From NCBI GenBank assembly GCA_965213685.1, contig CBDBZY010000063.1, positions 1-26,335 on the forward strand: a DNA stretch of 26,335 nt. Reading direction: 5' to 3'. The stretch's first letter is position 1. Each line of letters starts with the position of its first letter. The notes beneath the pieces were generated by a model. It saw only the letters and a program-made list of their open reading frames with translations. It had not been told where the DNA came from and ran no database searches. This document shows, piece by piece, positions 3,424-26,335 of this stretch. The DNA comes from a bacterium (GTDB taxonomy: Bacteria; UBA8248). The position numbers and the translations under genes are program-made.

Positions 3424-4624
3424 CTAGACGACGCCCTTGTCCCTGAGCGCGGATATGGCCGCCGCGCCGTAGCCGATCTCCTCGAGCACCTCTTCGGTGT
3501 GCCTGCCCTTCGGGGGCCCCGCCCAGCGAATCCTGCCCGGCGAGCCGCCGAGCCTGGGCGCCACGTTTTGCATCCGCAGGGGGCCCAGCTCCTCATCGTC
3601 CACGGTCGTGATGGTTTCTCTCGCGCGCACGTGGGGGTCCGCCATCAGCTGCGCCACGTCGTAGATCGGTCCCAGCGCGCCCTCGTATTCCTCGAAATGG
3701 GCGATGGTCTCCTCGAGCGTGCGCGCGCCTATCCAGTCCTGGATGGCGCCGTCCAGCTCCTCCACGTTCTCCACCCGTCCCTCCTGGGTGCGCATCCTGG
3801 GGTCATCGGCCAGATCCGCGCGGCCCACGGCGCGCATGATGCGCGCGAAGATGTTCTCCGCACTCGCGGAGATGACGACGTAGCGCCCGTCCCTGCAGCG
3901 GTACGCGTTCCTGGGCGCGGCGAAGGGAATGGCGTTTCCCGTGCGCTTCTGGACGAGGCCCAGCTGATCGTACTCGAGGGGCTGCGGGCCCAGCACCGTG
4001 GTGATGGGTTCGTAGATCGCGATGTCGATCTCCTGGCCCGGCGCGCCGTGGACGTCGCGGTGGTAGAGGGCCATCATCACGGCGTAGGTGCCGCACAGCG
4101 CGCTGATGCCGTCGGCCAGTGCGAAGGGCGGGAGCGTGGGCGGGCCGTCGGGTGCGCCCGTGATGTGCGCGAATCCGCTCATCGCCTCCGCCAGCGTGCC
4201 GAAGCCGGGCCTTTTGCGCGTAGGGCCCCTTTTGCCCGAAGCCGCTCGTTCGCGCCAGGATGAGCTTCGGGTTGAGGGCGTGGAGGCACTCCCAGGAGAG
4301 GCCCCACCTCTCCATGGTGCCGGGGCGGAAGTTCTCCACGAGCACGTCCGCACCCTCGCAGAGCCGGCGGACGATCTCCTGCCCCTCGGGTGCCGACATG
4401 TTGCAGGTGATGGATTTTTTGTTTCGGCTCGCCAGCTTCCACCAGAGCGAAACGCCGTCCCTTTGGGAGGCGAAGTTTCGGAGGGAATCGCCGCGCGGGT
4501 GTTCGACCTTGATGACCTCCGCCCCGAAATCCGCCATGTAGGTCGCTATCCACGGGCCGGCGAACAGGGTGCCGACGTCGATGACCCGGACGCCCTCCAG
4601 CGGCATTTGGGGGAGTGCGCTCAT
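3424..4624 (-). pseudogene. CoA-transferase family III (CaiB/BaiF), split by a +1 frameshift (or sequencing error)
   Basis: N-part PLEGVRVIDVG..AGP..DFGAEVIKVEHP..ENFRPG..SGFGQKGPY in one frame, PGFGTLAEAMSG... in another; removing one base from the T4 run at 4212-4215 gives a 399-aa ORF; AGGAG RBS before ATG 4624. Confidence 0.88.
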
Positions 4625-10891: not shown

Positions 10892-12262
10892 ATGACGATT
10901 GCAGAGGAGATCGCGGCGTTTGCCGCGGCGAGGAGTTTTGACGATCTCTCCGAGGAGATGCGCGGGCAGGCGAAGATGCTCATGCTCGACACCATCGGCT
11001 GCGCCATCGGCTCCCTGGGCGCGGCACCCGTCCGCCTCCTGCGCGCGCAGGCGGACGATTTCGGCGGCGCGCCCCGCTGCGCACTCATCGGCGGGGGGAG
11101 AACCGCGCCCGACAGGGCGGCGTTCTACAACACCGCGCTGATTCGCTACCTGGATTTCAACGACGGGTTCATGGGGAGGCTCGCCACGTCACACCCCAGC
11201 GACAACGCGGGCAGCGTGATGGCGGCGGCGGAATACGCAGACGCGAGCGGGGCGGAGTTCATGACCGCCCTTGCCGTGGCGTATGAGGTGCAGTGTCGGC
11301 TTTGCGACAGCGCGCCTTATGAGAAGAGAGGGTTTGATCAGCCCATGGCGGGTGCCTATGCCGTGGCGGCGGGCTGCGCGCGCGCCCTGGGCCTAGACGC
11401 AGGCAGGACGGCCCACGCCATCGCCCTCAGCGGGGTGCGCCAGAATCCCCTCCTCATCACGCGCACCGGCGAGATCTCCCATTGGAAGGGGTTCGCCTAC
11501 GCGGCCGCCGGGCACAGCGGGGTGCACTCGACGTTTCTGGCCATGCGCGGGGTGACCGGCCCCCTCCTGCTGGTGGAGGGTCCCTTCGGCGTTTTCGAGT
11601 CGGTGACGGGAGAGTTCGAGGTGGACTGGTCGGACGCGCGCCTGGGCAAGATGCTCGAGATCAGCGTGAAGCGCTACAACGCGGGCCTCCACTCCCAGAC
11701 GGCCATCGAGGGCGTCATCGGCATGAAGCGCGCGCACGGCTTCCGGCCCGAGGACGTCGAGGACGTCGAGATCGGAATTTACGAGCGCGCCTATTTCATC
11801 ATGGGGGGAGGGAAGGCCGGCGCGCGCGAGCACGTGCGGAACAAGGAGACGGCGGACCACAGCCTGCCCTACGTGCTCGCGGCCGCCATCATCGACGAGC
11901 AGGTTCTGCCGGCCCAATACGAGGAGGAGAGAATCCGCGCGGAGGACGTGCAGGTGCTTCTCAAGAGGGTGCGCACCACGAATTCCGACGAGATGACGGC
12001 GCGCTATCCCGCGCAATCCCCCGTCCGGATAGCCATCACCCTGAAAGACGGCGCGGTGCACGAGATGGACAAGCCCGCCTGGGAGGGGCACTTCTCCTCC
12101 CCCATGCGGTGGGAGACGGTGCGCGAGAAGTTCGAGGCACTCAGCGAGGCGCGCGCGGACGCCTCCCTGCGCGGGGAGATAGCGGACGCCGTCTCGAGGC
12201 TCGACGCCATTCGGTTCAAGGAGCTGACGGGGCTGCTGGAGAGGGTGGAGACGCCCGGGTAG
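10892..12262 (+). CDS. MmgE/PrpD family protein (2-methylcitrate dehydratase-like)
   Basis: LDTIGCAIG, RYLDFND, HPSDN, AVAYEV, KETADHSLPY; AGGAG RBS. Confidence 0.92.
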   Translation: MTIAEEIAAFAAARSFDDLSEEMRGQAKMLMLDTIGCAIGSLGAAPVRLLRAQADDFGGAPRCALIGGGRTAPDRAAFYNTALIRYLDFNDGFMGRLATSHPSDNAGSVMAAAEYADASGAEFMTALAVAYEVQCRLCDSAPYEKRGFDQPMAGAYAVAAGCARALGLDAGRTAHAIALSGVRQNPLLITRTGEISHWKGFAYAAAGHSGVHSTFLAMRGVTGPLLLVEGPFGVFESVTGEFEVDWSDARLGKMLEISVKRYNAGLHSQTAIEGVIGMKRAHGFRPEDVEDVEIGIYERAYFIMGGGKAGAREHVRNKETADHSLPYVLAAAIIDEQVLPAQYEEERIRAEDVQVLLKRVRTTNSDEMTARYPAQSPVRIAITLKDGAVHEMDKPAWEGHFSSPMRWETVREKFEALSEARADASLRGEIADAVSRLDAIRFKELTGLLERVETPG

Positions 12263-12341
12263 CGCAAAATCCTGCGCGGGCTACGCCGGGAGCGCGCCCC
12301 GCCGCCGGGACGATTCGCGCCCGTTTCATGGGAGGTCGCCG

Positions 12342-12587
12342 ATGTCGGACAGGAAAGTGACGGTCTATTCATCTTCCACATGAGCGCCATGCAGGTCGGT
12401 GAGAGCGTTTCTCTCCCATCATGGCGTGGCCTACACCGAGAAACTCGTGGATGAGGACGAGGAGGCCCTAGAGGAGTTGTTCCAACGGGCGAACATGCGG
12501 GCGGCGCCCGTGATATTCGTGGGCGACGAGAAGGTGGTCGGCTTTGATCGGGCGCGGCTCGAAGCGTTGTTGGGGATCGGCCGGTGA
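12342..12587 (+). CDS. Glutaredoxin/NrdH-like redoxin, probable selenoprotein (UxxC; Sec = TGA 12381-12383), 81 aa
   Basis: GGAGG RBS, ATG 12342, MSDRKVTVYSSST-[TGA]-APCRSVRAFLSHHGVAYTEK...AAPVIFVGDEKVVGFD; TGA sits at the first Cys of the CxxC motif. Confidence 0.88.
12384..12427 (+). promoter_or_regulatory. Putative bacterial SECIS element for the glutaredoxin UGA
   Basis: Lower stem GCGCCATG/CATGGCGT, upper stem GAGAG/CTCTC, apical loop CGTTT starting about 22 nt after UGA. Confidence 0.65.
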
Positions 12588-12883
12588 AGGAAAATGCGCG
12601 CGCGCTTCGGTGCCCCGGCTGAGGCCGGGAGGTGCCCATCCCGTGGGATGCGGAGGCGGGCGACCTGGTGGACTGCGATAACTGCGCGGGCGTGAAATTC
12701 CGCTTGGGCGCGGCGGGAGGGGCGGAAGTCCTCACCATCGTGCAGATGGTTTCATGCCCCCTTTGCGGGGAGCGTCTGCCGGTGGACGACGCGACGCCCG
12801 CCGGTGCCATCGTCGAGTGCGACGGCGAAAAACTCCGTCTCGCCAAGGCGTTCGGCGCGTTCGTCCTGGAGCGAACGCTGTAG
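12584..12883 (+). CDS. Tandem LysW-like zinc-ribbon protein, candidate selenoprotein (CxxU; TGA 12620-12622), 99 aa
   Basis: GTG overlaps the grx stop (GTGA); VKENARALRCPG-[TGA]-GREVPIPWDAEAGDLVDCDNC...CPLCGERLPVDDATPAGAIVECDG; repeat 1 CPGUG aligns with repeat 2 CPLCG. Confidence 0.72.
12637..12650 (+). promoter_or_regulatory. Putative SECIS apical hairpin for the zinc-ribbon UGA
   Basis: CATCC-CGTG-GGATG; loop begins about 19 nt after UGA and starts CGT like the glutaredoxin hairpin. Confidence 0.5.
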
Positions 12884-12899
12884 GGGGGCTCGCCCCCGC

Positions 12900-12943
12900 C
12901 CGAGGGACCCCTCGCGGGGGGTTGGCATGGCGCGGGGCGGGTG
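12900..12943 (+). repeat. Left copy of island-flanking direct repeat
   Basis: CCGAGGGACCCCTCGCGGGGGGTTGGCATGGCGCGGGGCGGGTG; matches 26214-26254 apart from homopolymer lengths. Confidence 0.85.
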
Positions 12944-13008
12944 TTGGCGGCGCGCAGTGGTTTTCTGCCCGCCCGGAAATCTTTTTTGGGTTCCGAAACC
13001 TCGTGCGG

Positions 13009-16148
<3,140 letters not shown>

Positions 16149-16149
<1 letters not shown>

Positions 16150-16634
16150 CACAGGACAAACCGGGCGCGCTCGCGGCGGAGCATTTCATAGGGGTTCATG
16201 CAACACAGGCCGAGACGGTCGCAAGCGTTCGGAATCTTGATTTTGTGGATGGTGTCAGCGAAGACTTCGTGGGTGACGACGGCACAGTCAAGAGCCAGCG
16301 CGTGCGCGACAAGAAAGCAATCGGCACCCCTTAGAAAGGTGTCGACGGCGGCCGACTTGTATTCATTGCCGTTCGCCCAATCGCTGACGGCGCGAAGCTT
16401 CGAAACCACGGCCTCGTCCGGCTTCAGAAAGAACCCGTCGCCCCGCTCCGCGGCCCACTTCGCCAGTTCGTCGTTTCCCTCTTGCAGTTCGCCCAAGACC
16501 TCCTCGACGCTGGCGACGGTGCCCGCGCCGTTCTGCTCGACCAGCCAATCCCAGAAGGCGGGGCAGAAATCGAAGCCGTAGTGCCGGTTCTTGGCCTGAA
16601 TGAACACGTTCGCGTCGATGAGATAGGCGGTCAT
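16149..16634 (-). CDS. DUF4411 family PIN-like domain protein
   Basis: [31 protein letters not shown]...[22 protein letters not shown]; ATGA overlap with the upstream gene. Confidence 0.88.
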
Positions 16635-17788
16635 TCCATCACCCCGACTTCGCGCCCGATATTGTTGAAGGTCTCGGTCTTCTTGACGCCCAACATCCGG
16701 AACGCATCCCGATAGAGGGTCCGCCCTTCGAGCGTGCTCACGACCAGTGCGCGCGCGAACCGCCGCCCGACCCGTGCGACCGTCGTGCGATAGAAGTCGC
16801 CGCCCGCGCGGCGCGCCTTGACGAGCTTCCGCAGACGTTCGTTCTCTTGTGCCCATTCTTTGTCAAAACGAGCGCGGGTGATCCGGCCCGCATCGAGCAG
16901 GCGGCGCAATATGACCAGCGTGCTGACCTTGTAGAGGCCCGCCAGTCGGGGCAGCGCGTCCGGCGGCGATTCGTTCGGTTGCAGATCGGATCGCAAGGCT
17001 TCCAGCGGCACCAGAAACTCCGCTGCCACCGCGTTGCACCACACCTCCTCGCGCCGGAAGCCCGACGCCGGCGCCGCGCCGAGATTCGACAGAGCGGACA
17101 CGCCAAGCCAGATATGCGCAAGCTCATGGGCGAGCGTGAACATCTGCGCCGCTTTCGTGTCCGCGCCGTTGACGAAGATTAGCGGTGCGAGGGGATCCGG
17201 CAGGGCGAAACCGCGAAACTCCTCGGGATTGAGACGGCGGCGGTTGTTGTTTGCTACCACGCCATTGATCATGACGAGGACGCCGGCCTCCTCGGCCTGG
17301 CGGATAAACGGGCGAAGGGCGTCGGGCCCCGTCGAGTGCTTCCGGCGGGCGGCCAGATCGAAACCCAAAACCTCTCGCATATCGGCCGCGACAGTTTCAG
17401 GGGATGTCTTGGTCGAGGTGCTGCCGACGAAGCCGAGAGCCGGCTCGCCGGCGGCACGAGCGAAATCCCGATACCAGCTCTGCCGTTCCTGGCAGGCGTA
17501 GATCGTGTCCAGCAAGTCCGGGCTGGGCCGCGTGACCGCGTGTCCGGCGAGGGTGCGGAAGTCCGGAATGGGAAGGGCTTCCTCCGGCGGTTCCGAGAGG
17601 AACAGGTAACCGATTGGCACATGGACCGCGCGCGCAAACGCCTCCAATTGCTTCAGGGTGGGCTGGACGTCGCCGTTCTCCCATTCGGGCAGTTTTTTGA
17701 ATTTTTTCGCCGCCAGAGATTCTTGCCGGATGTCGGCGCGCTCGCGCGCCCAGCGGAGAAGATCGGGATTGACGGGGACGCGGATCAT
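16631..17788 (-). CDS. XRE HTH fused to ImmA/IrrE-family metallopeptidase
   Basis: N-terminal LLRWARER..WENGDVQPTLKQLEAFA; FRGFAL..IFVNGADTKAAQMFTLAHELAH (HExxH); CNAVAAEFLVP. Confidence 0.92.
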   Translation of the reverse strand: MIRVPVNPDLLRWARERADIRQESLAAKKFKKLPEWENGDVQPTLKQLEAFARAVHVPIGYLFLSEPPEEALPIPDFRTLAGHAVTRPSPDLLDTIYACQERQSWYRDFARAAGEPALGFVGSTSTKTSPETVAADMREVLGFDLAARRKHSTGPDALRPFIRQAEEAGVLVMINGVVANNNRRRLNPEEFRGFALPDPLAPLIFVNGADTKAAQMFTLAHELAHIWLGVSALSNLGAAPASGFRREEVWCNAVAAEFLVPLEALRSDLQPNESPPDALPRLAGLYKVSTLVILRRLLDAGRITRARFDKEWAQENERLRKLVKARRAGGDFYRTTVARVGRRFARALVVSTLEGRTLYRDAFRMLGVKKTETFNNIGREVGVME

Positions 17789-18624
17789 GGACGCTCTCCC
17801 GCCAGGTTCGCCAGAGCGGCCTTCAGGACTTGGAAGCAGACTTTGGCGGTGTGTTCATCCGGCGCAAAGCCCGAGATCATCTGCTCGTGTGGGTGGATGT
17901 AGTTTCGGAAATTGCGCAAGCCGTGCCCGAACTGCTTGATGTCGGGCTTCAGAACGCCGACTTCGTCAGCAACGTCGATCAACTGCGCAAGGCTCCATTC
18001 ATGGAAGGGTTTCGGCGATTCTTTCGCTTTCGCTGTTTTCGGCGTCGCATTCGCCTGATTGAAGCGCGCTGGATCCTGCCTGGCTACGCCAAGCAGCAAA
18101 GCTTCCAACACGCTGCCGCACAGGAATATCACGGACAAATGAGCACCTGCGTCAAGCACGACGCACGCCTCCTTAATCCGTGCTTCGATTATTGGCACGA
18201 CCTGCGCGTCAATCGGCATTTTTTGAATTTTCGGAACCGCGAACTCGCGCGCCAGAAACTCGGCTTCGGTCGTGGCGGGGCGAGGGACGGCAGATTGACC
18301 GGTCAGCCGTGCGACGATGCCGCGCGCCTTTTCCAGCAATTTCTTGTCCGGGTCCTTCTTTGCGAGGTCGCAGTATGTCTCATAGGAGTCCAGCATCTCG
18401 GACAGCACCTTGCCTACCAGATCGTCGGGTTCCAATGTCCAAAACGCACGGAGCTTTTTCGCCTTTGACGTTCCATAAGTCTTATATTTTTGCCCGTGGA
18501 CGTCGACCTTGTATTTAAGAAAAAAATCGCCAAACGTAGCGTCCGTGAAGTCGAGAACATAGCCGCCGCTCATTTCGAGGAGTTCTTCGAGGTAGCGCTT
18601 ATCGCTACTCGTCAACGAACTCAT
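17785..18624 (-). CDS. Putative defence protein: Abi-associated N-terminal domain plus HEPN-like C-terminal domain
   Basis: N-term MSGGYVLDFTD..GTSKAKKLRAFW; C-term CGSVLEALL..WSLAQLID..LRNFRNYIHP (R-x-H HEPN-type motif); lower GC; coupled ATGA overlaps on both sides. Confidence 0.65.
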   Translation of the reverse strand: MSSLTSSDKRYLEELLEMSGGYVLDFTDATFGDFFLKYKVDVHGQKYKTYGTSKAKKLRAFWTLEPDDLVGKVLSEMLDSYETYCDLAKKDPDKKLLEKARGIVARLTGQSAVPRPATTEAEFLAREFAVPKIQKMPIDAQVVPIIEARIKEACVVLDAGAHLSVIFLCGSVLEALLLGVARQDPARFNQANATPKTAKAKESPKPFHEWSLAQLIDVADEVGVLKPDIKQFGHGLRNFRNYIHPHEQMISGFAPDEHTAKVCFQVLKAALANLAGERP

Positions 18625-19830
18625 GAGATCACCTCCCCCGCCTCGGCGAGGCGGATTTCGCCCGAGATGAGTTTTGGAAGGAGGAGGTCGCGGGCCTCGG
18701 AGAGCGTAAGGCTTTCATTAGAATGAAGCCTGAATTGCTCGAAGAGGGGTCCAACCACCTTCTCAAAGGCCACTGCCACATCAGAACCAGATGCCGGAAA
18801 CGGTATCGCTTTCAGGTTTTTCTGGTTCAGCTTTGGTTGAACGGTGCCGGTAACGTATGGAGTTATGTCTGTTTGTTGAAGGAAACACAACAACATCTCA
18901 TTCGAGATGCCTTTTCCCCTGAGAACATGAGCATGGTTGTTTGCCCAGAATTGACCCCAAACATATTGCGTAAAGGGTTTTCCGTCCGGTTTGGTGACCG
19001 ATCCATCTTCGCCGAGTAGGATGTGAACTCCTTCAAACAAGTAGTCCTCTACGTAATCTATCACTCCGGCCGCGCCATGATATGGATAGGGCCCTTGGCG
19101 TTGCTCGCGTTCTCGGGATGATAGCGGGATGCGTTTAGAATCGAGGATTTCGATCTGATCCCCTAGCAGCGAAACCTCCCACCCCGCCGGCTTGCCCGCA
19201 TCGTCCAGTGTGTCGGGAAAGAGCTCCCAGAGTTCGGGGGCGAGGTAGGGGGGGCGGCCCTCCATCTTGGCGCGGGTGGGGCCGAAATCCACGAACCAGT
19301 CCCGGAAGATCGCCCGCGCCATCTCCTCCAGCGTCTCGTTCATCCGCCGGTTCAGGTCGATCTTGTCGTCCAGTGTGCCCAGCACGTGTGCGATGGCGCG
19401 TTGTTCGGGGAGAGGGGGAAGAAGTATTCCGTGGCGTGCCGAATAATCCCACTTTGCTCGGGGCATGCGTGTTCCTTCAGACCCGGAGACTGAATGTTCG
19501 ATGAATTGCGGCGAGGCCACACAGTAGTGAAGAAATCTCTGATCTATGCCTTCCTTGGCACGGATGACCCAAATGTCGGTTGAACAAATACCATTGAATG
19601 GCGCCTCGATAACCTTGCGAAAGTATGGCCGGAGCTTTCCGAACAAAGTATCGCCCTTCTTGAAGCGTGACTTCGTACTCGTCACATCACTTGCTTGCCC
19701 ATGCTTGAGTAGGGATAAGGTGTTTTCTCCAATATGCTCAAGGCCGATATAGAGCATGTTCTCTGCATCAGATGGAGATACTGTTTCGCGGATTAAATCC
19801 GCGCACTCTTCAAGCGTTACCTCCTCCCAC

Positions 19831-19838
<8 letters not shown>
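18621..19838 (-). CDS. hsdS: Type I restriction specificity subunit
   Basis: Two low-GC TRDs separated by a high-GC conserved spacer ([42 protein letters not shown]); C-term [14 protein letters not shown]; ATG 19838 overlaps the hsdM end. Confidence 0.94.
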
Positions 19839-21380
<1,542 letters not shown>

Positions 21381-22162
21381 GTGGTCCTTGCCCGTTGTTC
21401 TCCGACGAAGACGCAGGTGCCCCTCTCCGCTCCGCGAATTGCGCTGCGGGCCGGGTCGATGCAGCTCCGGCAGCGAGAGGTCGCTCGCCTTCAGCGTAGC
21501 CGACGCTGCCCGGCAGAGCAATATATGGCGGGTGGTTCGCGGGAAGGCCGCAAGCGGTGCCGAATCGATGCGACGCCTGTGGTCAGGACGGACGCCCTCC
21601 ATCCCTGGGACCCGGTGCTTCTCGGCTAGCACATCCGCCGCAATCACCCGGCGTATCGCTACATGCGCGACGGGGATGGCGACGCCCCGCTCCGATGCCG
21701 TGTATCCATGAAACCAGACAGGCTCGACGAGGCCGTCCTGGCCCTTCTCTATCGAGGATGGATATTGCGGTATGACAAATGAGACGTCGCTCGCGACAGC
21801 CAAGTCTTGCGGAACGTCTGCTGCCGAAGCCCACTTCGTCATCCAGGCTGGCGAGGTTGAGTTCCCTGACGATCAACTCAAGGAGCTTCGTTCGAAGATC
21901 CTCGCCGTTGCTCCACGACTCAAAACGGATTTCGTCGTTTTCGAGGCGGTTCCAGATTTCGTCCGTAGCGGGACCCGGGATACCCCCGAACCAGCCGGCC
22001 AGCAACAAGTCGGCGCGGGTCGTTCCGCGTTGCCGGTGCGGAATGGTGCGCTTCGCATAACCGCGGCCGACCTGCGGAAAGCGCTGCTCGATACCCTCTG
22101 GTTCGAATCCGCGCACAATGTCCACGAACGGTCGACCACTTCCGGTGGGAGGAAGCTCGCGC

Positions 22163-22277
22163 GGGTCGCCCGGGCGCAGATAGCGCGCGCGCCCGTCCTC
22201 GAGGCGGAATGGCACTTGGCCATTCTTCACCCCGGCCACCTCCGCAGTCTGGCTGTTGACGAGGCCGAGGCCGGCGC
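22163..22277 (-). pseudogene. Fragment resembling the helicase region of a conjugative relaxase (MobF/TrwC-TraI type)
   Basis: AGLGLVNSQTAEVAGVKNGQVPFRLEDGRARYLRPGDP, recalled as similar to the segment just before the final helicase motifs of such relaxases. Confidence 0.45.
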
Positions 22278-22330
22278 CGTGTTCCCGCTCTTCGACTGAA
22301 CGGAATGAACAAGGAGACGTCTGCTTTGAT

Positions 22331-22768
22331 CTATGACCGCAGAATGTTGGGAAGCCACCTCCAGAGCCTCTTGGTCGCTCCCTTTCGGGCGGATTCCTCA
22401 GTCCGCTGGAAAGCGATCGCACGCTCTCCGTAGTACCTCTCCTTCAATCTGCGCTCCTGTGTGCGGCCAGCGGTGATTCTGCTAGCTGGCCATTGCCTCG
22501 CCCATCTCACCGTGCTCTCGCTTATCCAGTAGTGCGATCGGCACTCGAAGCTCCAGTTCCCGATCGACGGGTTCAGAGAAATCGACACGCCATCGTAGAT
22601 AAGGGTCCAGTCCGTGGGAGTCAGTGGTGTCACGACATCACGTCCGCATCCGCAGCAGCACTTGTGCACCACCGTCGCGTAGTTCACGGACACATAGAGC
22701 GTCCGCTCTTTGAGATCGTTTGGAATAGTCTTGACGAATTCGTGTGCGAGAACCATCGGCCACTTCAT
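22331..22768 (-). CDS. DUF6527 family Cys/His-rich protein
   Basis: HKCCCGCGRDVVTPL..W..SLNPSIGNWSFECRSHYWI; ATGA overlap with the E2-E1 gene. Confidence 0.85.
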   Translation of the reverse strand: MKWPMVLAHEFVKTIPNDLKERTLYVSVNYATVVHKCCCGCGRDVVTPLTPTDWTLIYDGVSISLNPSIGNWSFECRSHYWISESTVRWARQWPASRITAGRTQERRLKERYYGERAIAFQRTEESARKGATKRLWRWLPNILRS

Positions 22769-23946
22769 GCGTTGTCCTCATTGACGATCGCGTTGCCATC
22801 CAACGTGTACGCGCTGAAATGCTCGTTCTCCAAGTCCCGGTAGAACCCGCGCAGTTTCTTCCATTTGATCACGGCCAAAGCGGCGTTCAGCGCGTTCAAC
22901 TCGGCAATCTGAATGTTCTGGGAATACACGCCGTCCGCATCGCCACCGGACAGCCCGATTCGTTTCTTGTCCCGCACGTGGTCGCGTTTGTCTGGTGTGC
23001 TGGCAGTTACCCGCACGACGCCCTGGAGCCGGTTATCGACGAGTTCGAGTCCCATCCCTACGTCGATGAACGGGATATCGAGTTCCTCTAACTTTTCGAT
23101 GACGGGCCGTTTCGCCTCGCCTCGGTCCACGCATATGAACGCGAAGTCCATCCCCTCAATAGCGTCCAGATTGCCCTCACCGAGATAGCAGTCATGCTCC
23201 ACAATTCCGCTTCGCATGAGGCTATAGCGGCCGGCATGATGGCGAACCTTTCGCGGACGCGCCTCGAGCTCTTCCTTGGACGGCGCGCCCGGGGAGCGGA
23301 ACGCGTTGTGCTGGAGGAAGTCGTCCCCGTCGAAGACATGGATTTCCCGCACGGGGGTCTTGGCCACCAAATCAAGTATGTACGAGCCCGTCCCGCCCAA
23401 TCCGACGATCGCAACCCGGTCCCGCTCCAGATTGCTTGACAGCGCCGCGATTCCCGCCCGGCTCGAGGCGGTGTCGAGGTATTTGAACACCGCCTTGGGA
23501 TCGTCCGGCTCTATCTCCCGGCGGGGTCGCGCCGTCACGTTTGGATCGATGGCTTCTGCGGGACCCGCGATGATGGCGATATAGGTCGTCATCTTGTGGT
23601 GATAGTCCGTGTACCCATCGGCAGGCTTGCTCGAGAACGAGTGGTCAACCGCCAGACCATCGGAGATCTTCTCCTGAACACTCTTGTGTTTGATCTTCGC
23701 GAGTTCACACCCGTTCCGATCGCAGGGGTACTCACCCGCGAACATGGCTACATGGGTCCTCGGCCGGGTTGTAACGTCTCCCGCCAGATCCAGCGTCGAT
23801 ACCAGGGCGCCCAGCTTCACCTGCCCACTGGAATTGACGTAAGGCACGTGGCGGATGACGAGGTGCCCCGACACGATGGCGACGTCGTACCCTTCATCCG
23901 CCAGCTTCTTGAGGTCGGGCCTACGACTTATCAGTGACTGTGACAT
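22765..23946 (-). CDS. ThiF/E1-like adenylyltransferase with N-terminal E2-like (DUF6791) domain
   Basis: N-term LVIRHVPYVN..GEYPCD..HSFSSKP..YTDYHHKMTTY; ThiF VAIVGLGGTGSYILD, FDGD, FICVD, FIDVGMG, ELNALNAALAV. Confidence 0.88.
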   Translation of the reverse strand: MSQSLISRRPDLKKLADEGYDVAIVSGHLVIRHVPYVNSSGQVKLGALVSTLDLAGDVTTRPRTHVAMFAGEYPCDRNGCELAKIKHKSVQEKISDGLAVDHSFSSKPADGYTDYHHKMTTYIAIIAGPAEAIDPNVTARPRREIEPDDPKAVFKYLDTASSRAGIAALSSNLERDRVAIVGLGGTGSYILDLVAKTPVREIHVFDGDDFLQHNAFRSPGAPSKEELEARPRKVRHHAGRYSLMRSGIVEHDCYLGEGNLDAIEGMDFAFICVDRGEAKRPVIEKLEELDIPFIDVGMGLELVDNRLQGVVRVTASTPDKRDHVRDKKRIGLSGGDADGVYSQNIQIAELNALNAALAVIKWKKLRGFYRDLENEHFSAYTLDGNAIVNEDNA

Positions 23947-24220
23947 TAATAACCGTGCCGTCCCGCAGCTTCACCGCTTCGCCCTCGATCAGAATGCCTT
24001 CCGGCTTGCGGCCACCAGCTTTCCGATAGATGATCGTGAAGCAGATGAACTCGCCGGTGGGCGGGTCTTCGAATGCCAGAGCGACAACCCGGTCGAAAGT
24101 CAGCTCTTCGTCCTCGACCGTTTTTTCCCGGCCGTTGACGACGATTGAAAAACCCTTTTCGTTAGGGTGCCCGTGATCCTTGTCGCCATGTTCGGGATTA
24201 TGCTCACGATCGCGCTTCAT
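23921..24220 (-). CDS. Ubiquitin-like (multiubiquitin-domain, beta-grasp) protein
   Basis: His-rich disordered N-term, then FSIVVNGREKTV..LTFDRVVALAF..TIIY..GILIEGEAVKLRDGTVINVTVTDKS; AGGGAG RBS. Confidence 0.82.
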   Translation of the reverse strand: MKRDREHNPEHGDKDHGHPNEKGFSIVVNGREKTVEDEELTFDRVVALAFEDPPTGEFICFTIIYRKAGGRKPEGILIEGEAVKLRDGTVINVTVTDKS

Positions 24221-24236
24221 GCGATGGACTCCCTTC

Positions 24237-24470
24237 TCAGCCCTTGGGCGGATAGGGGTCGCCGCCGTGGCTGTCGCTGCCGGCGATCCGTCCGTCCCTG
24301 TTGTGAATGCGAAGCTCGGTTCCCTGGTTACGGCTCACCGCGCGGCCTCTGTCGATGGCCGCCTGCTTCGTCGCGTGGTGGCTACTGGCGCGCCGCGCGC
24401 CGCCGCGTTTGACGTCCCAGCCCCCGCCCGGGTTCCGAACGATATGGTGGGTTTTGGGTCCCTTTCCCAT
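24237..24470 (-). CDS. DUF2188 domain protein
   Basis: HHIVRNPGGGWDVKRGGARRAS..TKQAAIDRGR..ELRIHNRDGRI..DSHGGDPYPPKG; AAGGAG RBS. Confidence 0.88.
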   Translation of the reverse strand: MGKGPKTHHIVRNPGGGWDVKRGGARRASSHHATKQAAIDRGRAVSRNQGTELRIHNRDGRIAGSDSHGGDPYPPKG

Positions 24471-24500
24471 GGTCAATCTCCTTGTAGTCAAGCGTTGCGT

Positions 24501-24537
24501 ATTGTACAGTTTGACGAATTCGTCGTGGCCTCGGCCA
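24501..24537. promoter_or_regulatory. Divergent control region with candidate operator palindromes
   Basis: Minus-strand TACAAT at 24501-24506; perfect palindrome GACGAATTCGTC at 24513-24524; TGGCC-TC-GGCCA at 24526-24537. Confidence 0.5.
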
Positions 24538-24596
24538 AGAAAATGCCCGCTGCACGGCCGTGCCGAAATCGTTATAGAGGAGTATACGATTTCGTG

Positions 24597-24959
24597 ATGG
24601 ACGAGTCAAGTACGCCAACAGAGCTGTTTCCGCAGAGGCTGCGAACCGCACGAATGGCGCGCAATCTGAGCCAGAGCGAGCTTGCCCGGCGGGCGGACCT
24701 ACAAGCATCTGCAGTTTCCCAGTTTGAAACGGGCACTCGCAAGCCTTCTTTCGACAATCTCAAGCGCTTGGCCGACGCTCTGCGAGTGACAACCGACTAT
24801 CTGCTCGGCCGCTCCGGTCTGATGGATGCCGCAGCCGCCACCGTCGACAAGCTCCATCGGCACTATTCCGGCCTCTCGGCCGAGTATCAGGAGATGGCCG
24901 ACGATTTCGTCCAGATGTTGGCCGAGAAAGCCAGGCGGAAGGCGAGGGAGGGCGAGTAG
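24597..24959 (+). CDS. XRE-family HTH transcriptional regulator (CapH/ImmR-like)
   Basis: RLRTARMARNLSQSELARRADLQASAVSQFETGTRKPSFDNLKRLADALRVTTDYLLGR; AGAGGAG RBS (start could be GTG 24594). Confidence 0.92.
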   Translation: MDESSTPTELFPQRLRTARMARNLSQSELARRADLQASAVSQFETGTRKPSFDNLKRLADALRVTTDYLLGRSGLMDAAAATVDKLHRHYSGLSAEYQEMADDFVQMLAEKARRKAREGE

Positions 24960-25836
24960 GTGGGGCGACCCCGAGATCAATTTTTCAAAGTGCGTCAAGA
25001 GGCGGAACAGCTCCTCCGGGAACTCCGGATCGACGCTCTGCCGATCGATCCATTTGCGATTGCGCATCAACTCGACATCGAACTGAAGCCGCTCCCCGCT
25101 TCCGCTGGCGGGGCCTCAGGCATGCTGCTCCACGTAGACGGCGTATTCGGCATTGGATATCCGACCCACATCAACAATCAGGGCTTCAGGAGATTCTCCG
25201 TGGCCCATGAGATTGGGCACTACAGGTTGCCCGGACACATCGATGCCGTCTTGGATGACCGGGACCAGCATTTTTCCAAAGCCGGGTTTCGCAGCACCGA
25301 TCGCTACGAGCAGGAGGCGGACCAATTCGCCTCGGCATTGCTCATGCCTGCCAAGCTTTTCGCTGCTGCCGCAGGTTGCGCCGGCGATGGTCTCCAGGCG
25401 ATCGAGACGCTCCAAGCGACATGCGAAACGTCTCTTGAGGCTACGGCCATCCGATACGCACAAACCAGCCGTGAGCCCGTGGCGGTAATCCGAAGCAGCG
25501 GCAGCATTATCGACTACGCGGTCATGTCGAACCCTTTGAGGGATTTCCCGGGGCTCGCCTGGATTCGAAAGGGCACGCCATTGCCCTCCGCCAGCGCGAC
25601 CGCTCAGTTCAACGCCGATGTGGAGAACATCGTCCGAGGTCGGCGCGCCGAAGGTCAAAGTTGCCTTCGGGACTGGTTTCAACGGGCTGCGTCGACAGGA
25701 GATTGTGGAAGAAATCGTCGGACTGGGCAGCTACGGCAAGGTTCTGACCGTGCTTACCGGGATGGAACCTCCCGACGAGTTTGAGGACGAAGAAACCGAC
25801 TTAGAAGAGTCGTGGGAAGTGCGCTTTCGTCGATGA
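24960..25836 (+). pseudogene. ImmA/IrrE-family metallopeptidase (CapP-like), +1 frameshift near the C-terminus (or sequencing error)
   Basis: LPIDPFAIA, RRFSVAHEIGH (HExxH), EQEADQFASALLMP, SLEATAIRY; removing one T at 25677-25679 gives DWFNGLRRQEIVEE...VRFRR, 291 aa. Confidence 0.88.
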
Positions 25837-26002
25837 TTCGGCCCTGTCTACCCGCCGTTCCCACCCGTCGATTCGGAATCGGAACCCCACCCGAAAGCGA
25901 TCGTCCTCGCCTGCCGCTGTTGGAGCAGCACGCACCAATTGTCAAACTGCGCGACGCGCGCGACAGCCGGGGACTCCGTTGCGGACAATACACTACGTTT
26001 GT

Positions 26003-26182
26003 GTCGAGAAGGATGCGCAGGCAGCGGTCCATCAGACGGATTAGGGCGGCGCGGCCAGAGGTCGTCCGCGGTGCTTCGCGCCCGCGCGTCATCTCGCTTC
26101 CTTCTGGTGCACCGCTCGGCTCGAAGATGACGATCTTGACGTCGGCCGGGCAGCGCAATGCCGCCTCGGTGCGCCCGCGCGC
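26003..26182 (-). pseudogene. Fragment resembling DarG (macro-domain antitoxin) linker region
   Basis: RGRTEAALRCPADVKIVIFEPSGAPEGSEMTRGREAPRTTSGRAALIRLMDRCLRILLD, recalled as similar to the end of the macro domain and start of the DarG C-terminal domain. Confidence 0.5.
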
Positions 26183-26213
26183 TTTCTTTTGTTGACGATG
26201 GGACTGTCTCGGG

Positions 26214-26254
26214 CCGAGGGACCCTCGCGGGGTTGGCATGGCGCGGGGCGGGTG
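26214..26254 (+). repeat. Right copy of island-flanking direct repeat
   Basis: CCGAGGGACCCTCGCGGGGTTGGCATGGCGCGGGGCGGGTG. Confidence 0.85.
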
Positions 26255-26261
26255 CTAGAAT
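26233..26261 (+). promoter_or_regulatory. sigma70 promoter overlapping the right repeat, pointing out of the window
   Basis: TTGGCA-N17-TAGAAT with TGn extended -10. Confidence 0.6.
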
Positions 26262-26335
26262 CCGGCCGTCGCTTCAGGTGGGCTCATCCGTTCTCGGCTG
26301 TTTTCTCAGGTTCCGGAGATTCGTTTTGGCGCAAC

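Follow-up and report, generated by a model that had tools for sequence, protein, structure and literature searches.

The subject of this study is a pair of small, adjacent genes on the forward strand of a 26,335-nucleotide (nt) stretch of bacterial DNA (GTDB lineage UBA8248; assembly GCA_965213685.1, contig CBDBZY010000063.1, positions 1 to 26,335), referred to here in its entirety as the window. Gene 1 encodes a glutaredoxin-like protein, hereafter the redoxin, and gene 2 a tandem zinc-ribbon protein, hereafter the ribbon; each contains an early in-frame TGA which, very probably, is translated as selenocysteine (Sec, U in the motifs below), so that both would be genuine selenoprotein genes. 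A sequence-only reading of the window had drawn attention to the pair, and its basic observations, that the TGAs lie at codons 14 and 13 inside cysteine (Cys) motifs and that the two genes overlap by GTGA, are confirmed. The layout is as follows.

12330..12335, forward strand: Shine-Dalgarno-like GGGAGG of gene 1, 6 nt before the ATG at 12342 (read from the sequence)
12342..12587, forward strand: gene 1, predicted 81-amino-acid glutaredoxin-fold selenoprotein of YruB/NrdH-like type with active site U14-A-P-C17 (translation with TGA as U)
12381..12383, forward strand: predicted Sec codon TGA of gene 1, codon 14, motif S-T-U-A-P-C (read from the sequence)
12585-12587, forward strand: stop codon TGA of gene 1 (read from the sequence)
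12584..12587, forward strand: GTGA start/stop overlap, with the GTG start of gene 2 at 12584-12586 (read from the sequence)
12584..12883, forward strand: gene 2, predicted 99-amino-acid tandem LysW-like zinc-ribbon selenoprotein (translation; Pfam PF21344)
12620..12622, forward strand: predicted Sec codon TGA of gene 2, codon 13, "site A," motif C-P-G-U-G (read from the sequence)
12683..12685, forward strand: Cys34 codon TGC of gene 2, "site B," which is TGA in 10/26 related genomes (codon comparison)
12881-12883, forward strand: stop codon TAG of gene 2 (read from the sequence)

The overlap is not peculiar to the window. An NTGA junction of the redoxin and ribbon genes is kept in 19 of the 20 loci compared, which implies that translation of the second gene is coupled to that of the first. 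When 61 related genomes were searched in six frames, 26 proved to contain gene 2, with 0, 1, or 2 TGAs inside the match, and in all 26 the redoxin gene lies directly upstream on the same strand. The pairing extends further still, to metagenome contigs carrying a distant, all-Cys subgroup of the ribbon that is 33-38% identical to the window protein. At the 35 such loci, every one of the 29 with at least 300 nt of upstream sequence shows, directly upstream, a glutaredoxin-like frame with a TGA in the motif S-S-x-U-S-x-C; in two more, with about 175 nt upstream, the C-terminal part of the redoxin is visible; one with 177 nt upstream gave no redoxin match; and three have no usable upstream sequence. 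Motifs of MerT, MerE, or HMA type (the last as G-M-S-U-G-A-U) occur on the same strand in 24 of the 35 loci, a count of simple motif matches in a set with several near-duplicate contigs; the remaining loci are mostly on short contigs. The pair that the sequence-only reading had expected to be conserved elsewhere is therefore a conserved, translationally coupled two-gene cassette, and the metagenome pairing indicates that it is older and wider than the window's class and travels with metal carriers. Within the window's genus it is present in 13 of the 23 genomes searched, the window's own included.

The in-frame TGA codons

Sec and Cys exchange at two positions of the ribbon, sites A and B, which are the last residues of the two knuckles of its first ribbon. 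Each is encoded by TGA, TGT, or TGC, and the two are always 21 codons apart. Over the 26 genomes, TGA stands at neither site in 10, at site A only in 6, at site B only in 1, and at both in 9; at site A alone the tally is TGA in 15/26 and TGT or TGC in 11/26. A maximum-likelihood tree of the 26 ribbon proteins calls for at least 6 changes among these four states and in two cases joins, with good support, a Sec form and a Cys form as sisters; as a whole the tree is poorly resolved, because the proteins offer only about 100 residues. The states are also distributed by genus, with at least one ribbon Sec in 13/13 genus genomes that hold the pair versus 3/13 outside the genus. In gene 1, the TGA takes the place of the leading Cys in the C-x-x-C motif of Pfam Glutaredoxin; the codon is TGA in 26/26 genomes with the pair, and no Cys form of the orthologue was found among them.

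The codons on either side of each TGA behave as coding sequence. Within the genus (13 loci), the pooled ratio of nonsynonymous to synonymous polymorphism (pN/pS) in the redoxin gene is 0.12 ahead of the TGA (8 codons) and 0.13 beyond it (60 codons); the corresponding figures for the ribbon gene are 0.24 (6 codons) and 0.35 (20 codons). Across the full set of 20 loci, the ratios lie between 0.31 and 0.49. Both sides of each TGA are thus under purifying selection, and the low values before each TGA mean that the short upstream pieces are translated in frame with what follows. At the same time, gene 1 itself ends on TGA as a plain stop at 19 of the 20 loci, so the codon has not been reassigned. 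The machinery for Sec is at hand: the window's own assembly contains a tRNA-Sec (78.6 bits, anticodon tca), adjacent selA (564.2 bits) and selB (369.8 bits) genes, and a selD that carries a Sec of its own (K-A-G-G-U-G-S-K). Among the 26 genomes holding the pair, selA was found in 25, the lone miss being a genome that is 79% complete, and it is present in 45 of 46 genomes of the class.

Independent copies of the locus were sought in public sequencing runs. Contigs of four runs from two studies span 12250-12950 in one piece. Two of them (X1 and X2) are identical to the window and may be the source of the assembly. Two variants, X4 from the same study and X5 from the second, differ by 20 and 23 bases plus a few indels; they are 95-99% alike to the window, and both TGAs, the GTGA overlap, and the gene 1 start are untouched. 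In X4 and X5, GT has become AC at 12632-12633, destroying the GTG at 12632 that a gene caller would choose downstream of the TGA, so that the 83-amino-acid frame that would remain if the ribbon TGA were a stop has no start. Among 10 runs checked for RNA, none is recorded as such.

Against this background, we give hardly any credence to the notion that the TGAs are plain stops, sequencing errors, or marks of decay, or that UGA has been reassigned, with neither gene a real selenoprotein gene. Such doubts are prompted by apparent frameshifts elsewhere in the assembly (selD and hsdM) and by a genome bin that is heterogeneous in GC content: its 71 contigs total 8.0 Mb, about twice the size of same-genus genomes (2.9-4.6 Mb), and their GC content runs from 33 to 69%, with megabase contigs at 0.44-0.46 beside contigs of about 0.65, the window among the latter. 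The window's 65.8% GC agrees with that of the contigs bearing the Sec machinery (65-66%). The TGAs, moreover, are base substitutions and not indels, they align with Cys across the 26 genomes and are identical in the contigs of all four runs, the codons upstream of each are under purifying selection, and TGA still terminates gene 1 in nearly every locus. The argument of the sequence-only reading, that two chance mutations or errors were unlikely both to hit Cys motifs, is borne out by this conservation. Nor is gene 2 a pseudogene, given the replacement of Sec by Cys in homologues, the pN/pS values of 0.24 and 0.35, and a confident fold model. Error or decay is ruled out for practical purposes. 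What speaks against Sec in this particular strain is selD, whose coding sequence in the window's own assembly (contig C31, ~101.3-102.1 kb, reverse strand) is spread over at least three frames. The jumps reflect either assembly indels or a decaying gene, and if they are real and not assembly error, the strain would be unable to make Sec.

Bacterial Sec insertion sequence (SECIS) elements are hairpins that lie a short distance downstream of the UGA and carry G/U in the apical loop. Candidates follow both TGAs.

12384..12427, forward strand: candidate SECIS of gene 1 (RNAalifold, 20 sequences, 14 pairs)
12638..12649, forward strand: candidate SECIS apical hairpin of gene 2, AUCC-CGUG-GGAU (consensus fold, 13 Sec forms)

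In the gene 1 candidate, a lower stem pairs 12384-12388 with 12423-12427, and an apical hairpin of 6 bp occupies 12401-12415; its loop, some 27-29 nt beyond the U of the UGA, contains G-U. Compensatory double changes are seen in 3 of the 14 pairs, one of them a change from A-U to G-C in the window and in locus L015. In the window, the hairpin has the stem GAGAG/CUCUC and the loop CGUUU within a longer stem, and the 60-nt fold after the TGA has z = -1.75, with 8 of 200 shuffles folding as well. The gene 2 hairpin at site A has the consensus (G/A)UCC-CGUG-GGA(C/U), with 4 bp, a tetraloop, and the loop G-U at +24/+25 from the U; the closing pair changes from G-C to A-U in 2 of the 13 Sec forms, and when the single 60-mer is folded by itself, the minimum-energy structure is a different one (z = -0.49). 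It counts against this hairpin that Cys forms have it too, since the conserved V-P-W-D is encoded there. Although compatible with a SECIS, the hairpin has no discriminating power and is weak as an indication of Sec. At site B, as used in relatives, a 9-bp hairpin lies downstream, without covariation. No Rfam family reached its gathering score anywhere in the window, and at E values up to 10 the region 12300-12950 returned two chance-level matches. The CGT loops reported after each TGA by the sequence-only reading are thus present in the window, whereas in most relatives the redoxin loop is AGUUU.

The two proteins and their neighbors

Gene 1 matches Pfam Glutaredoxin (PF00462) at 2.3e-15 and 56.9 bits, well over the cut-off of 22.9. 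Its best NCBIfam match, the highest of 19 that are all sub-threshold, is the YruB family (TIGR02196; 72 bits, cut-off 88.55), and no NCBIfam model, the Uxx-star selenoprotein models included, is matched over its cut-off. Besides U-A-P-C, the protein carries a conserved F-L-S-H-H motif. By its sequence, gene 1 appears to be a fresh member of an already known kind of selenoprotein, the Sec-glutaredoxins.

Gene 2 is the more unusual of the two. It matches Pfam Zn_ribbon_LysW (PF21344) in two stretches (3.8e-9, 36.5 bits, cut-off 27), with C10-x-x-U13 ... C31-x-x-C34 as the ligands of the first ribbon and C58-x-x-C61 ... C79 as those of the second. An NCBIfam scan at E values up to 0.01 returned the LysW/ArgW model (NF041070) alone, at 47.9 bits against a cut-off of 75, and no selenoprotein-specific model; in that scan there was no match to NF041115, NF045648 MbdU, or NF041197. 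An AlphaFold2 model built on a 79-sequence alignment is all-beta, with a mean predicted local distance difference test score (pLDDT) of 86.2 and a predicted template modeling score (pTM) of 0.69. When the whole tandem protein was compared with the PDB by Foldseek, there was no match at E <= 0.001; the top rank went to LysW 3vpb_E, with probability 1.00, a root-mean-square deviation of 1.2 Å over 47 columns, and E 0.077. In an exhaustive alignment against 48,161 chains, LysW again came first, 3vpb at Z 7.8 and 3wwl at Z 6.0 (model residues 54-99), with the next chain at Z 3.5, so that single-ribbon LysW proteins are the one clear structural counterpart. A search with the gene 2 family profile also recovers the LysW sequence (E 1.7e-5). 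Gene 2 can thus be described, from model and sequence together, as a duplicated LysW-type zinc ribbon, each half of which is LysW-like in sequence and in predicted fold.

Distant relatives of gene 2 keep eight ligands, Cys4 plus Cys3His (C-x-x-C ... C-x-x-C, then C-x-x-C ... H-C), and in the window's clade C58, C61, and H79 are all that is left of the second site, the last being Cys79 in the window copy. The C-termini vary: 12 of the 13 genus orthologues end in Glu (...P-V-E and similar), the window copy ends in ...L-E-R-T-L, and forms outside the genus have tails of 15-25 residues, usually with one conserved Cys (R-P-G-C). The family is small. A 5.8-billion-sequence collection holds 89 members, and among 1.84 billion cluster representatives there are 106 at E <= 0.001 and 44 at <= 1e-10. 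Named public entries are mostly "hypothetical protein," two have ill-fitting automatic names, and the organism labels are those of Nitrospinota or Tectomicrobia metagenome-assembled genomes. Sec forms of the ribbon exist in the public collection only as fragments of 61-84 amino acids; gene callers truncate both genes, so annotation as it stands does not show the ribbon family, for which no curated model exists.

Two further features flank the pair in the window.

10892..12262, forward strand: MmgE/PrpD-family gene, upstream neighbor outside the module (Pfam MmgE_PrpD_N 3.7e-65, MmgE_PrpD_C 4.5e-39)
~12893..12920, forward strand: GC-rich inverted repeat after gene 2, with no T-run (read from the sequence)

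The sequence-only reading had placed the pair just downstream of the former and ended it at the latter. The PrpD-like gene does lie upstream on the same strand, but a functional link finds no backing, since the synteny is confined to one genus: in genus g1 the gene precedes the pair at L034-L037 and has been displaced at L042, and other genera lack it upstream of the pair. Likewise, the inverted repeat is present but is not a canonical terminator. In addition to the missing T-run, it folds no better than shuffles (z = +0.46) and contains indels in strain variants, and a pattern scan of 12100-13100 gave 0 terminator-like and 0 promoter-like sites.

It is in the relatives that the gene context becomes informative. 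Gene order in the window runs from a DUF1015 gene through a GTPase gene, a TIM-barrel gene, and the PrpD-like gene to the pair, and from there into a defense island that continues to the contig end. Other genomes of the genus have the same upstream genes, then the pair, variable DNA, a thioredoxin reductase gene (TIGR01292; 364.3 bits, over the cut-off of 343.45), a 4Fe-4S ferredoxin-like gene, and a phosphoribosyltransferase gene. Outside the genus, metal-handling genes stand on the same strand between the pair and the thioredoxin reductase gene. These include a membrane protein resembling MerE, with C-P-C-H (46.5 bits to Pfam MerE in genome G029, over cut-off); MerT-like proteins, one of which has U-U for the usual C-C and scores 32.6 bits with 2 TGAs inside (cut-off 32.9); an HMA metal binder with G-M-T-U-G-G-U (NF041115, "metal-binding (seleno)protein," 99.2 bits, cut-off 95); a metallochaperone resembling the CopZ N-terminal domain (NF047645, 100.9 bits, cut-off 100); a regulator of MerR type, which scores best with TIGR02051 (128.8 bits, under the cut-off of 150.85); and a flavoprotein disulfide reductase, whose best match is glutathione reductase-like and under all cut-offs. 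The neighborhood search for redoxin and ribbon pairs that the sequence-only reading had suggested thus places the relatives' pair amid MerE-, MerT-, HMA-, and MerR-like genes.

Several of these mer-like neighbors appear to be selenoproteins themselves. In MerT-like proteins, U-U or C-U takes the place of the vicinal Cys pair in the first helix (L039, 5596-5943, forward strand; L090, ~636; L057, ~3587), and HMA domains with two Sec occur as a G-M-T-U-G-G-U lipoprotein (L046, 5952-6302, forward strand), as a G-M-T-U-P-F-T-U MerT-HMA fusion (L052, 6528-7148, reverse strand), and as G-M-S-U-G-A-U in distant metagenome loci (L061, ~3481). A small membrane protein ending in K-R-R-Y-A-R-G-E-I ..., a motif that we take to be SHOCT-like, follows the MerR-type regulator in L052 (~3450-4560, reverse strand) and L039 (6846-7193, forward strand).

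The picture in the window's own genome is different. A tblastn search of its assembly at 1e-3 with the relatives' MerE-, MerT-, CopZ-N-, and MerR-type proteins and their thioredoxin reductase gave no match, the HMA protein gave one weak match, and the flavoprotein gave only paralogues at 26-30% identity. The thioredoxin reductase gene expected downstream was accordingly not found in this assembly, in which the contig ends inside the defense island; together with the heterogeneous bin, this leads us to take the missing matches as a sign of an incomplete assembly and not of absence. The order within the genus (pair, variable DNA, thioredoxin reductase) suggests that a mer-like block was deleted between conserved flanks. 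The simplest history, as judged from these gene orders, would be that the genus lost the mer-like transport genes and kept the pair, and that the ribbon gained Sec. Directly after the pair, the relatives' synteny is interrupted in the window by the defense-type island (13009-26335), which contains hsdR, a DUF4411 gene with an M78 peptidase gene, hsdS, hsdM, a DUF6527-ThiF-DUF6791 trio, and a pair of helix-turn-helix and M78 genes. In hsdM (19831-21842, minus strand), the HsdM_N and N6_Mtase domains lie in two overlapping frames, a frameshift-like arrangement due to an indel error or to decay.

A proposed metal-handling role and its alternatives

The best overall explanation of the locus, and one that we regard as probable, is that the two genes encode coupled selenoproteins, a ribbon that binds a soft metal of the Hg type and a dedicated selenol redoxin that serves it. 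For the metal-handling role taken by itself, which is argued by analogy with the relatives' loci, we would put the chances no better than even. The pairing of a Sec-redoxin with a Sec metal-binding partner, as proposed by the sequence-only reading, fits both the domain matches and the mer-like context of the relatives. The analysis itself establishes the two frames, the exchange of Sec and Cys, the coupling of the genes, the fold, and the neighborhood; metal binding, the identity of the metal, contact between the two proteins, and the reductant are inferred, and the scheme would run as follows. Gene 1 would be a thiol/selenol oxidoreductase, with Sec as the attacking nucleophile in U-x-x-C, and would probably be recycled by the thioredoxin reductase encoded downstream in relatives. 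The first ribbon of gene 2 would offer four soft ligands, Cys10, Sec13, Cys31, and Cys34, of which position 13, position 34, or both are predicted Sec in relatives, and would bind a thiophilic metal ion in the cytoplasm, most likely Hg(II), with Cu(I)/Cd(II)-type ions as possible alternatives. It may take the metal from carriers of the MerT, MerE, or HMA type or work beside them. Sec in the ribbon could confer higher metal affinity or faster ligand exchange, and the selenol redoxin could keep the (seleno)cysteine ligands of the ribbon reduced or catalyze the release or exchange of metal. In the window's genus, with the transporters gone, the ribbon might act as a stand-alone high-affinity scavenger or buffer.

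A more far-reaching version, which we put forward tentatively and would sooner doubt than assert, makes gene 2 the founder of a selenoprotein family and the first zinc ribbon with one or two encoded Sec ligands, a selenolate-based trap or chaperone for Hg(II)-type metal whose loading or unloading the redoxin catalyzes, in a MerA-independent route of detoxification or buffering that a single genus kept and strengthened after the transporters were lost.

Several observations weigh against a metal role for the pair, or against a tight bond between its two Sec proteins. NCBIfam matches to MerT, MerTP, MerE, and MerR are all under the curated cut-offs, so "mercury" is a nearest-relative label and not a demonstrated specificity. 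The flavoprotein of the G030 operon scores 302 bits against the MerA model, whose cut-off is 454, and MerA itself (TIGR02053) is over its cut-off in 3 of the 61 genomes, none of which has the pair. No MerT or MerE is above threshold in the window's own genome or in 3 closed genomes of the genus, so for the genus the metal context is borrowed from relatives. The search of the 22 other genus genomes left 10 in which no pair was found, several of these 10 being closed single contigs, which makes it a dispensable accessory cassette even there. Finally, the redoxin has its Sec in every genome, whether the ribbon has Sec or not; hence, the redoxin Sec is not tuned to that of the ribbon.

The most serious alternative, though in our judgment an unlikely one, is a purely redox module without metal trafficking, in which the ribbon is a redox client or electron carrier, as a rubredoxin-like Fe(Cys)4 center or a zinc redox switch. 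In its mechanistic form, equally unlikely, the Cys/Sec pairs would cycle between the reduced state and a selenenylsulfide or diselenide, reduced in turn by the Sec-redoxin and thioredoxin reductase. The YruB family, named after a gene of a rubredoxin operon, is the redoxin's best NCBIfam match; thioredoxin reductase and ferredoxin-like genes lie downstream in the genus; and the pair persists there without Mer-type transporters, so that a purely redox role may even hold in that genus. The motifs C-x-x-U and U-x-x-C, moreover, are the usual redox motifs of selenoproteins in the part of the table available from a 2026 review. This notion is weakened by the placement of the two Sec positions in different knuckles of one four-ligand ribbon, which suits a shared metal site. 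The wider family, moreover, conserves eight ligands, Cys4 plus Cys3His, as in LysW-type zinc sites, and outside the genus it is metal carriers and a MerR-type regulator, and no redox clients, that stand out as the most strongly conserved neighbors.

Two other roles fare much worse. The sequence-only reading had also entertained a selenium carrier, and a pair that delivers selenide or a persulfide-type species, for instance toward selenophosphate synthetase, would accord with the heavy use of Sec in the class, as judged by the near-universal selA. We consider this very improbable: no supporting evidence emerged, the Sec machinery is on other contigs, and in the loci examined the pair is not linked to selD, selA, selB, or sulfurtransferase genes. 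Still more improbable is an amino-group carrier of LysW type acting with an ATP-grasp ligase, the redoxin being unrelated. LysW carrier proteins have an acidic C-terminal tail that ends in the conjugated Glu, and both the LysW-like halves of gene 2 and the terminal Glu of nearly all genus orthologues recall them. Yet the LysW/ArgW score is far under its cut-off, the window protein ends in ...E-R-T-L and forms outside the genus in Cys-bearing tails, and duplication together with an obligatory redoxin partner has no counterpart in LysW systems. Nor do genes of LysX/ArgX type, LysZ, or LysY appear among the annotated neighbors; in the window and 9 related loci, none of LysX/Z/Y/J/K neighbors the pair.

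Relation to known systems

What is new here is gene 2, together with the conserved cassette of Sec-redoxin and ribbon and its tie to selenoprotein-rich mer-like loci. Individual pieces of that context have been seen before. The accessible part of a 2026 review of prokaryotic selenoproteins includes glutaredoxin (U-x-x-C), a putative mercuric transport protein, a U-x-x-U metal-binding protein, MbdU, and a small dual-CXXC protein, and in that review "zinc" occurs once only, for a Cu/Zn efflux transporter. A 2022 preprint, in the portion available, mentions a small group of MerT selenoproteins, and the available text of the GOS survey has MerP and a putative mercuric transport protein among its selenoproteins. 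The words "zinc," "ribbon," and "LysW" are absent from the deep-Sep paper. A full-text literature search for LysW with selenocysteine returned nothing that, by title and abstract, bears on the ribbon family, and "zinc ribbon" occurs in none of the 20 papers listed by a search on zinc-ribbon selenoproteins and glutaredoxin. On the strength of these literature and NCBIfam scans, gene 2 is an undescribed selenoprotein family; the supplementary tables of large surveys could hold it as "hypothetical protein." Selenocysteine is nearly always discussed as a catalytic redox residue, and here it alternates with Cys at two ligand positions of a zinc ribbon. If the proposed function is right, uncultured bacteria with Nitrospinota or Tectomicrobia labels handle thiophilic metals by selenolate and not thiolate chemistry, and the family would offer a small natural system for comparing selenium and sulfur ligands in metal affinity and exchange.

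Among known Sec-glutaredoxins (PF00462, U-x-x-C), gene 1 shares the fold match and the predicted Sec at the first position of C-x-x-C; it is distinguished by its YruB/NrdH-like character, its U-A-P-C and F-L-S-H-H motifs, and its invariable pairing with a ribbon gene. Each half of gene 2 shares the zinc-ribbon fold and the ligand spacing of LysW/ArgW (PF21344; 3vpb and 3wwl). Gene 2 differs from them in being a tandem duplicate with a degenerate second site and predicted Sec at ligand positions, in falling under the NCBIfam cut-off, in lacking the acidic carrier tail, and in having a redoxin and metal carriers as partners and not enzymes of lysine or arginine biosynthesis.

TRASH-domain and zinc-finger-like proteins of archaeal mer operons are small cysteine-knuckle proteins proposed to be parts of heavy-metal trafficking. 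Going by their descriptions, they belong to another family with another cysteine pattern, and they have neither Sec nor a coupled redoxin. TRASH is mentioned in PMC8261052 and PMC3466566, in the parts of those papers available. The HMA binders (MerP, NmerA, CopZ, and the U-x-x-U proteins of NF041115) come closer in setting, being likewise small, rich in Cys or Sec, and encoded beside MerT or MerE, and members of NF041115 stand in the same operons as the pair in relatives. The folds, however, are unrelated: gene 2 is predicted to be an all-beta zinc ribbon with four ligands drawn from two knuckles, whereas the HMA fold is ferredoxin-like and presents a single G-M-T-C-x-x-C loop.

In functional logic, a parallel may be the "tandem use of selenocysteine" reportedly described by Kim and colleagues in 2011, in which a Clostridium Sec-glutaredoxin is said to reduce a Sec-containing methionine sulfoxide reductase (MsrA); the two Clostridium genes are said not to form an overlapping pair. 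In both cases, a selenoprotein redoxin would serve a selenoprotein partner. The MsrA partner is an enzyme, whereas gene 2 is a ribbon protein, and here the redoxin has its Sec even where the ribbon is all-Cys.

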